IMG/VR virus record: IMGVR_UViG_2645727991_000023
Span: 1-9,973 of that record
From: a virus
Taxonomy: Duplodnaviria > Heunggongvirae > Uroviricota > Caudoviricetes
Direction: 5' to 3' (one strand)
Length of the DNA stretch: 9,973 nt
This document shows, piece by piece, positions 5,394 through 5,770 of this stretch. The position numbers and the translations under genes were made by a program. Position 1 is the first letter of the stretch. Every line of letters begins with the position of its first letter. The notes beneath the pieces were generated by a model. That model saw only the letters and a list, made by a program, of their open reading frames with translations. It was not told where the DNA came from and did not search any database.

Positions 5394-5582
5394 ATGGAAA
5401 AGTTATCACGTAATGCCAGCACGTCTGAACTTCGTTTCGAAATTGGCGTTATCACTGGAGACAAAACATTTATTGAAGACGCCATTAAGCAGAGAAAACT
5501 CGAGCAGGACCTGTTAAATGAAGTATGCATTCCTTCAATGCTGGCTCGTCTGGACCTGCTGCAAAAAGGATATAAACAATGA
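5394..5582 (+). CDS. dicB: DicB-like cell-division inhibitor (62 aa)
   Basis: ATG at 5394 (track ORF starts upstream at 5289) with GAGGA 7 nt upstream. 62 aa, as in DicB. Motifs FEIGV...EDAI..RK.E..LLN..CI.SMLARL resemble DicB as I remember it. Sits downstream of the DicF-like sRNA. Confidence 0.7.
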   Translation: MEKLSRNASTSELRFEIGVITGDKTFIEDAIKQRKLEQDLLNEVCIPSMLARLDLLQKGYKQ

Positions 5583-5770
5583 ATACAACATTTGCACTCG
5601 TTCTGACAGTTTATCTTGTTTCCGGCGAATCTCTTGAGCTGGTGACTGGCTTATACGGTTCAATGAAAGAATGCATGGCTGCAGCAGCAGAACAAAAAAT
5701 TCCCGGTAACTGTTATCCGGTAGATAAAACTACTCACACTAATAATAACGAAATACCGGCAGGACTTTAA
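5579..5770 (+). CDS. YdfD-like small membrane/lysis protein (63 aa)
   Basis: Start ATG overlaps the DicB-like stop (ATGA), implying translational coupling. Hydrophobic N-terminus (MNTTFALVLTVYLVSG). Length and position match ydfD of Qin as I remember it. Confidence 0.65.
   Translation: MNTTFALVLTVYLVSGESLELVTGLYGSMKECMAAAAEQKIPGNCYPVDKTTHTNNNEIPAGL

Follow-up and report, generated by a model that had tools for sequence, protein, structure and literature searches.

Two small reading frames that overlap at positions 5394–5770 of the window, that is, the whole 9,973 nt stretch of viral DNA analysed here, had been predicted from the sequence to encode a DicB-like division inhibitor and a YdfD-like membrane or lysis peptide, and to constitute with a DicF-like sRNA a three-component cassette controlling host cell division. 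This raises the questions of whether the two genes are indeed dicB and ydfD, how tightly their expression is bound together, and what the pair would do to the host. As set out below, the interval very probably comprises dicB and ydfD of a Qin-like lambdoid prophage, placed in its early-left operon and working by a K-12-like scheme.

Identification of the dicB and ydfD genes

The upstream gene (5394–5582, plus strand) runs from an ATG at 5394 to a TGA at 5580–5582, encodes a 62 aa protein, and carries a Shine-Dalgarno sequence (GAGGA, 5382–5386) 7 nt 5′ of the start codon. Its product aligned with the Pfam DicB profile PF05358 from end to end (residues 1–62 on profile positions 1–62; E = 2e-37, 127 bits against a cut-off of 27) and matched the NCBIfam DicB model NF049927 (121 bits against a cut-off of 100). 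These full-length matches above curated cut-offs bear out the prediction of a DicB-family gene. The protein is also 100% identical to WP_045907303.1, which is labelled DicB in strain 14EC001, and its gene shows the layout of the family, lying in the early operon of a lambdoid prophage with the DicF region upstream and ydfD downstream. A longer in-frame ORF starting from GTG 5289 (97 aa) was considered as dicB and rejected, because both the Pfam and the NCBIfam profiles begin at ATG 5394; this start is also disfavoured by the non-triplet indels that crowd positions 5279–5303 among the compared loci, and PHROG phrog_24763, which models the 97 aa form, is read as an annotation artefact.

The downstream gene (5579–5770, plus strand) encodes 63 aa and is preceded by AAGGA at 5566–5570, 8 nt 5′ of its ATG. 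Its product matched the YdfD family of Pfam, DUF1482 (PF07358), with an E of 2.8e-19 and 69 bits where the cut-off is 25, as well as PHROG phrog_1092 (E = 3.5e-34), and no NCBIfam model matched it. As expected of a YdfD, it has a hydrophobic N-terminal segment (Kyte-Doolittle maximum of 2.35 at residues 4–14), two conserved cysteines and an intact C-terminus (-EIPAGL), and it is identical to WP_001098307.1, which is found in 14EC001, where it is labelled as a DUF1482 protein, and in O157:H7. The BLASTP comparison proposed with the original prediction gave clear similarity to both K-12 proteins, with 55% identity to DicB (E = 3e-22) and 63% identity to YdfD (E = 8e-33).

Searching PDB sequences with DicB and with YdfD found no relative of solved structure, and neither protein matched any PADLOC-DB defence-system model at E ≤ 0.01. 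None of the minus-strand ORFs at 5195–5530, 4830–5165 and 5128–5283 matched a Pfam or PHROG family. In every allele examined (window 5195–5530, and loci L001–L012), a reading frame running antisense to dicB and its leader was open (86–204 codons, stop to stop), which is probably an effect of codon composition.

The statement that DicB blocks phage entry via ManYZ, made along with the prediction, goes back to a real publication: K-12 DicB works via MinC and ZipA, and via MinC it also stops ManYZ-dependent phage DNA entry (PMC6832061). By analogy with this allele, we infer that the window DicB would exert a MinC-dependent, ZipA-targeted block of the Z-ring as well as ManYZ phage exclusion.

The prophage context of the gene pair

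The window as a whole shares 97.8% identity with a prophage in E. coli 14EC001, and the best-matching locus in this strain (L001, 99% identical) adjoins rspB, where Qin sits in K-12. The minus strand of the window carries genes for a DUF1627 protein, a DnaC-like protein, a replisome organizer, a YdaT-family protein (CII-like by PHROG) and a cro-like protein, and the plus strand carries the repressor gene, ydfC, DicF, dicB, ydfD, an exonuclease gene, xis and int. The operon is ordered as repressor, operators and, further on, ydfC, DicF, leader, dicB, ydfD, exonuclease, xis and int. This layout of both strands places dicB-ydfD in the early-left (PL-type) operon of a lambdoid prophage, a position that we take, by comparison with lambda, to be the kil position of other lambdoid phages. 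Judged from gene content and order, the window thus represents the early-left arm of a Qin-like lambdoid prophage.

The immunity region (2700–3910) comprises a 139 aa repressor, a 93 aa cro-like gene with a sub-threshold YdaS match and the YdaT-family gene. The repressor gene (3491–3910, plus strand) matched PHROG phrog_5736, a ‘transcriptional regulator’ (E = 4.4e-70), and its product, labelled ‘hypothetical protein’ in strain 14EC001, resembles DicA weakly and at the C-terminus only (NCBIfam, 23.9 bits against a cut-off of 101). By position this repressor is a cI/DicA analogue, but by its sequence it is not of the DicA type, and the immunity region as a whole is by the same measure not of the DicA/DicC type. 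Since the repressor is not DicA, the induction signals may differ from those of K-12, and the Rem/DicA regulation described there need not hold for this prophage.

A TACC-N-GGTA motif is repeated on both sides of the repressor gene, at 3418–3455, where the palindromes sit between the divergent repressor and cro-like genes, and at 3953–3990, directly 3′ of the repressor gene, as the two operator-like palindromes TACCCATGGGTA and TACCTATGGGTA. The latter pair also makes up a 16-bp hairpin followed by a T run, and hence scores as a terminator too. By analogy with the K-12 promoter dicBp (PMC10448788), 3953–3990 is the probable OL/PL-type control region for the rightward operon containing dicB-ydfD; a consensus promoter scan found no strong plus-strand promoter for the operon, either there or elsewhere.

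An ECs_2282-family CxxC zinc-ribbon gene (4315–4521, minus strand, 68 aa; NCBIfam, 57 bits against 37) lies antisense inside the early-left operon, at the spot of ydfA and ydfB in K-12. The final coding gene upstream of DicF is a ydfC-like gene (4608–4826, plus strand, 72 aa; PHROG phrog_1744, E = 2e-39), which is labelled ydfC in L001. Following ydfD, the next gene of the operon is the exonuclease gene (5864–8337, plus strand), which appears as two ORFs, 5864–7738 and 7558–8337. Its 5′ part gave an exodeoxyribonuclease VIII match far under the curated cut-off (NCBIfam PRK09709, 206 bits against 1269), and its 3′ part carries an Rv2179c-like 3′-5′ exonuclease domain (Pfam, E = 1.7e-67). The gene is split by one missing A near 7570 (GCTGTC[A]TGGGC; within 7560–7580) and is otherwise identical over 2475 nt to the intact 824 aa gene of 14EC001, so that this deletion marks either a recent pseudogene or else a sequencing error.

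DicF and the structured dicB leader

Downstream of ydfC lies a structured non-coding leader, the DicF precursor region (4827–5167, plus strand), which is 97% identical to K-12 and folds with a z of −2.8. It is followed by DicF itself, including its intrinsic terminator hairpin (5168–5219, plus strand), which matched Rfam RF00039 over the complete model (positions 1–52 of 52) with 75 bits against a gathering score of 48. The predicted DicF-like sRNA is therefore in place, 174 nt upstream of dicB. A terminator-like site at 5202–5217 precedes a T run, with the U-tract at 5220–5224, and DicF differs from that of K-12 at one base, a G at 5206 in the 3′ half, which is a position variable in the Rfam consensus. 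K-12 DicF is processed from a polycistronic transcript and represses ftsZ by pairing via its 3′ region (PMC5069750). Two transcript sizes have been described in K-12: one of 1146 nt stops at the DicF terminator, and the other, of 1608 nt, continues through ydfD. An RNase III cut in the K-12 precursor region yields a 190-nt DicF species (PMC10448788), and RNase III yields a 72-nt DicF species from the full-length mRNA (PMC5069750, PMC9438474).

The 174 nt between DicF and dicB (5220–5393, plus strand) form a leader that is 100% identical to K-12 and has a predicted minimum free energy of −68.8 kcal/mol (z = −5.2), with 0 of 200 shuffled sequences folding as well. In the predicted fold, a 28-bp long-range helix joins 5220–5247 with 5358–5386 and encloses three more stems, including two hairpins near dicB; the helix would pair the U-tract of the DicF terminator with the dicB Shine-Dalgarno sequence. 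Among 11 distinct sequences, 99% of the helix cells are paired, and six helix pairs vary on one side only, exchanging G-U and Watson-Crick pairs, which is compatible with an RNA of this strand. No compensatory double substitutions occurred in these 11 sequences and the shuffle controls were not significant, because the sequence is too conserved for the covariation test. Folding energy and the one-sided compatible changes are thus what argues for the leader structure. Across related loci, both strands of the helix are nearly invariant, as are the two dicB-proximal hairpins (about 5304–5393), and the middle portion (5279–5303) is indel-rich.

The 3′ end of the published 72-nt DicF would fall mid-helix, near 5238, and the predicted helix is a probable RNase III site. 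RNase III usually cuts with a stagger of 2 nt. A partner cut so staggered would fall near 5368/5369, which is also where 18 loci lacking DicF start to resemble the window. Read-through transcripts would accordingly be expected to carry a masked dicB ribosome-binding site, and RNase III, besides trimming DicF, would define where the dicB-ydfD mRNA begins.

The leader (5231–5371) also matched the Rfam family STnc100 (RF02076) at 34 bits, which is under the gathering score of 47, and membership in this family was rejected for that reason. Similar sub-threshold matches, of 30–42 bits, were found in loci L005, L007, L012, L014, L036, L038, L041, L044, L051, L054, L057, L082, L083 and L090. The dicB leader and STnc100 may share ancestry.

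The dicB/ydfD junction and translational coupling

The two genes share an ATGA at 5579–5582 (plus strand), in which the stop codon of dicB overlaps the start codon of ydfD, as had been predicted. The 4-nt overlap recurs in all 10 genome or phage loci compared (ATGA in nine, GTGA in one). Scanning viral contigs with YdfD turned up 568 relatives. Among the best 80 that were retrieved, which are the closest relatives of this YdfD and therefore give no population estimates, 71 have a true 4-nt ATGA overlap, and in nine the dicB stop precedes the ydfD ATG by 2 nt. Adjacency of dicB and ydfD was observed in 89 of the 89 other loci carrying both, and the spacing of stop and start ranges only from −4 to +2 nt although the coding sequence varies by up to about 40%. 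Stop and start codons thus overlap or abut in a conserved manner, as looked for in a coupled gene pair, and this conserved junction suggests translational coupling of dicB and ydfD.

Such coupling need not follow from the sequence, because ydfD is equipped with a Shine-Dalgarno sequence of its own, which no structure at the junction masks. A quite possible alternative is that the two genes are translated independently, with the ATGA reflecting nothing but compact phage gene packing and the ydfD Shine-Dalgarno sequence setting the YdfD output. This would agree with the quality of that sequence, AAGGA at a spacing of 8 nt in the window and GGAG or AGGA in other alleles, with a junction region devoid of significant structure (folding z = 0.2), and with the nine of 80 viral loci in which the overlap is missing. 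It accounts less well for a stop/start distance kept within −4 to +2 nt in all 89 compared loci and for two genes that were never apart in the sampled loci; moreover, DicB neutralises lysis by YdfD (PMC8835842), which supplies a reason for fixed co-expression. Considering the junction together with this antidote-like effect, a coupled or strictly co-ordinated translation of dicB and ydfD is plausible. Since DicB suppresses YdfD lysis, the fixed gene order and the stop/start junction would ensure that the lysis protein is made with its brake.

The lytic activity expected of YdfD

K-12 YdfD lyses dividing cells and binds IspG, its killing depends on ongoing division, and it is neutralised by DicB or SulA (PMC8835842). 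The binding was found to be direct by pull-down, ITC and FRET, and either ispG overexpression or the pathway product rescues cells from lysis; lysis needs both termini of the protein, and its two cysteines are conserved (PMC8835842). This IspG mechanism comes from one study by one laboratory. Between the two options originally offered, a membrane or a lysis peptide, that of a lysis peptide agrees with this published activity, and by analogy with the K-12 allele, at 63% identity, the window YdfD would be a small lysis protein.

It seems unlikely that YdfD instead acts at or across the inner membrane, for instance as a membrane-anchored or exported peptide with a disulfide, with IspG not being its main mode of killing and the gene pair serving as a membrane-level exclusion or lysis-timing device. 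Such an action would suit the hydrophobic N-terminal segment, which is like an uncharged signal or anchor sequence, and the evidence for IspG comes, as noted, from a single laboratory. Both cysteines are among the 18 residues invariant across 37 YdfD variants (17 residues are invariant across 33 DicB variants), and cysteine mutants of YdfD still bind IspG (PMC8835842), from which it follows that the cysteines serve another purpose. However, the hydrophobic stretch is about 14 residues only and is followed by Gly-Glu at residues 16–17, and the direct binding and the rescue experiments cited above speak for IspG. Killing through IspG therefore remains the reading we prefer for YdfD.

Allele divergence and distribution of dicB-ydfD

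With an 801-nt query spanning DicF, dicB and ydfD (5100–5900), the same operon turned up in 4645 of the 5426 complete E. coli genomes searched, multiple copies being frequent, and the search gave roughly 10,800 places in all. A species-wide genome scan for DicB gave Escherichia and Shigella only, plus one contig binned as a Veillonella MAG. This contig (JAGZPX010000007.1, labelled Veillonella parvula; L008) contains a complete E. coli-type DicF-dicB-ydfD and is most likely a mis-binned Escherichia prophage contig.

Between the ydfC stop and the dicB ATG lie 567 bases, all non-coding, that are 97–100% identical in the window and K-12. Precisely at the dicB ATG the identity drops to 72% and 76%, and it recovers in part, to 87%, past the ydfD stop. 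The dS values between the window and K-12 are 0.55 for dicB and 0.64 for ydfD, with dN/dS of 0.53 and 0.35, respectively, and dN/dS against other alleles ranges over 0.23–0.53 for dicB and 0.21–0.46 for ydfD. In 21 pairwise comparisons of seven alleles, dS was mostly 0.2–1.8 and dN/dS was 0.1–0.5 in all but one pair, staying below 0.55 for ydfD in every comparison and for dicB in all but one. High dS combined with low dN/dS indicates that dicB and ydfD are old, diverged and under purifying selection, while their flanks are shared. At least four deeply diverged dicB-ydfD allele groups exist in E. coli, with about 50–60% protein identity between groups; that of the window is also present in O157:H7 and O103 strains, and the DicB and YdfD allele classes re-assort with each other. 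Such diverged alleles beside a 97–100% identical leader identify dicB-ydfD as a swappable allelic cassette.

Both ORFs are open in 88 of 89 other loci. The only broken copy, in Shigella flexneri SFBU0723 (L011, 1686–1874), has a frameshift in ydfD following codon 10, and its reading frame closes after 18 codons, with dicB intact.

Among the best 80 of the 568 viral relatives, dicB lies immediately upstream of ydfD in every one, and the region further upstream holds a canonical DicF and leader in 32, a divergent terminator hairpin and leader in 29, and neither in 18, with one contig too short to be classified. As far as gene arrangement tells, the inseparable unit is thus dicB-ydfD rather than dicF-dicB, with DicF as a separable part. 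In the 18 loci without DicF and leader (L062–L065, L067–L079 and L084, all IMG/VR contigs), the stop codon of the preceding protein gene overlaps the dicB Shine-Dalgarno sequence, and what they share with the window is only about 25 nt 5′ of the dicB ATG. In L062, the sole one of them scanned with Rfam, a C4 antisense RNA (78 bits) and isrK (69 bits) precede the operon, which suggests, from these matches, an operon of the antirepressor (C4/isrK) type.

A different hairpin-terminator occupies the DicF position in L005 (1557–1608), L007 (1277–1326), L036, L044, L057, L090 and similar loci. These hairpins scored 32–45 bits, all under the DicF gathering threshold, and most are without the 5′ UUCUGGUGAC region, which L007 keeps while differing in the hairpin. 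The element may be a diverged DicF with other targets.

In phage Evi (LR597642.1; L003, 1800–2021), dicB-ydfD is replaced by kil (phrog_294, E = 7.9e-33) between flanks that contain the same DicF, a leader 96% identical to that of the window and the same downstream exonuclease, with breakpoints near 5378 and 5795. In Evi, the helix strand opposite the U-tract reads AAAAA, and kil has its Shine-Dalgarno sequence outside the helix. A speculative, rather improbable extension of these findings is that the slot from the DicF leader to the exonuclease acts as a recombinational ‘socket’, into which lambdoid prophages swap functionally different dicB-ydfD alleles or kil, with the RNase III-cut helix as a shared expression gate. 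If so, the alleles could differ, for example, in the phages that DicB excludes or in the strength with which DicB restrains YdfD.

That dicB-ydfD is merely decaying baggage of a defective prophage, with no current function, is very improbable: the neighbouring exonuclease is frameshifted in the window, ydfD is frameshifted in the S. flexneri copy and K-12 Qin is cryptic, but both window ORFs are intact and have Shine-Dalgarno sequences, 88 of the 89 other loci keep both ORFs open, nearly every comparison between deeply diverged alleles gives a dN/dS below 0.55, and the proteins are identical to those of other strains.

A working model for the operon

The K-12-like scheme that we favour would proceed as follows. 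Once the prophage repressor is lifted, transcription would enter from upstream, as can be expected from K-12, in which DicA represses dicBp. Most transcripts would end at the DicF terminator and be processed to DicF, which represses translation of ftsZ, as shown in K-12. In read-through RNA, the U-tract and the next 23 nt are predicted to pair with the dicB leader and Shine-Dalgarno sequence in the 28-bp helix, which RNase III would cut to give the 72-nt DicF published for K-12 and, presumably, a dicB-ydfD mRNA starting about 25 nt before the ATG. DicB would then bind MinC and send it to ZipA at midcell, so that Z-ring formation is blocked, and the same DicB-MinC interaction would disable ManYZ-dependent phage DNA entry, both activities being those of the K-12 allele. 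YdfD, whose translation would begin at the overlapping start codon through either re-initiation or the Shine-Dalgarno sequence of ydfD, would inhibit IspG and lyse dividing cells, as the K-12 allele does.

The three-component division-control cassette of the original prediction can accordingly be equated with the known dicBF operon; its description holds for the composition but not for the role of YdfD, which lyses cells through IspG and does not control division (PMC8835842).

By all these comparisons, the locus is an ordinary one. It holds the dicF-dicB-ydfD module, which has long been known, in an allele that is divergent yet annotated before: both proteins are identical to annotated RefSeq proteins, and there is nothing new in kind here. 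Its correct annotation as a textbook prophage module changes nothing for the field, although the recognition of dicB-ydfD, not dicF-dicB, as the inseparable unit refines the view of the ‘dicBF operon’. The locus has a modest value as a pointer, in that at least four deeply diverged allele groups exist and the K-12 allele is the only one tested, and the remaining interest lies in possible functional differences between the diverged dicB-ydfD alleles. If phage exclusion or lysis control varies by allele, this would bear on prophage-mediated superinfection immunity in pathogenic lineages.

Comparison with known systems

Like the single-gene lysis proteins phiX174 E, Q-beta A2 and LysM, YdfD is small and is reported to lyse cells through a block of an enzyme in envelope-precursor supply (PMC8835842). 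Unlike them, it has IspG of the MEP pathway as its reported target. It is encoded among the early genes of a tailed lambdoid prophage, in one operon with a division inhibitor by which its action is suppressed, and it is not the main lysis system of the phage.

The dicB leader has the enclosing helix and the CCNGGAGGCACCNGG hairpin of the Rfam STnc100 (RF02076) consensus, a family of prophage sRNAs related to PasD according to a 2026 preprint (bioRxiv 10.64898/2026.05.13.724894). Its score of 34 bits against a gathering score of 47 sets it apart, as does its location, since STnc100 and PasD proper occupy different parts of phage genomes, with PasD found near the gene for antiterminator Q and STnc100 most often by Fels-1 prophage genes (bioRxiv 10.64898/2026.05.13.724894).

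The kil gene of phage Evi (PHROG phrog_294, ‘Kil protein for bacterial septation inhibition’) takes the identical slot to dicB-ydfD and is likewise annotated as a small prophage-encoded division inhibitor, but it has no sequence similarity to DicB and is a single gene without a YdfD partner. Kil proteins act on FtsZ/ZipA independently of MinC, and that of Evi presumably resembles Rac KilR.

The closest system is the dicBF operon of K-12 Qin (ydfABC-dicF-dicB-ydfD), which has the same order of ydfC, DicF, 174-nt leader, dicB, ydfD and exonuclease, the same ATGA junction, a 97–100% identical leader and a DicF one base apart, with the closest window match adjoining rspB. The two differ in their DicB and YdfD, which are 55% and 63% identical (dS about 0.55–0.65), and in the upstream region, where the window is without ydfA and ydfB and has the minus-strand ECs_2282-family zinc-ribbon gene instead. 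The immunity genes of the window are another repressor, a YdaS-like gene and a YdaT-family gene rather than DicA/DicC. Finally, in contrast to the cryptic Qin, the prophage arm in the window is intact, with int, xis and an exonuclease that is full-length except for the 1-nt deletion, and it bears no IS2 truncation.
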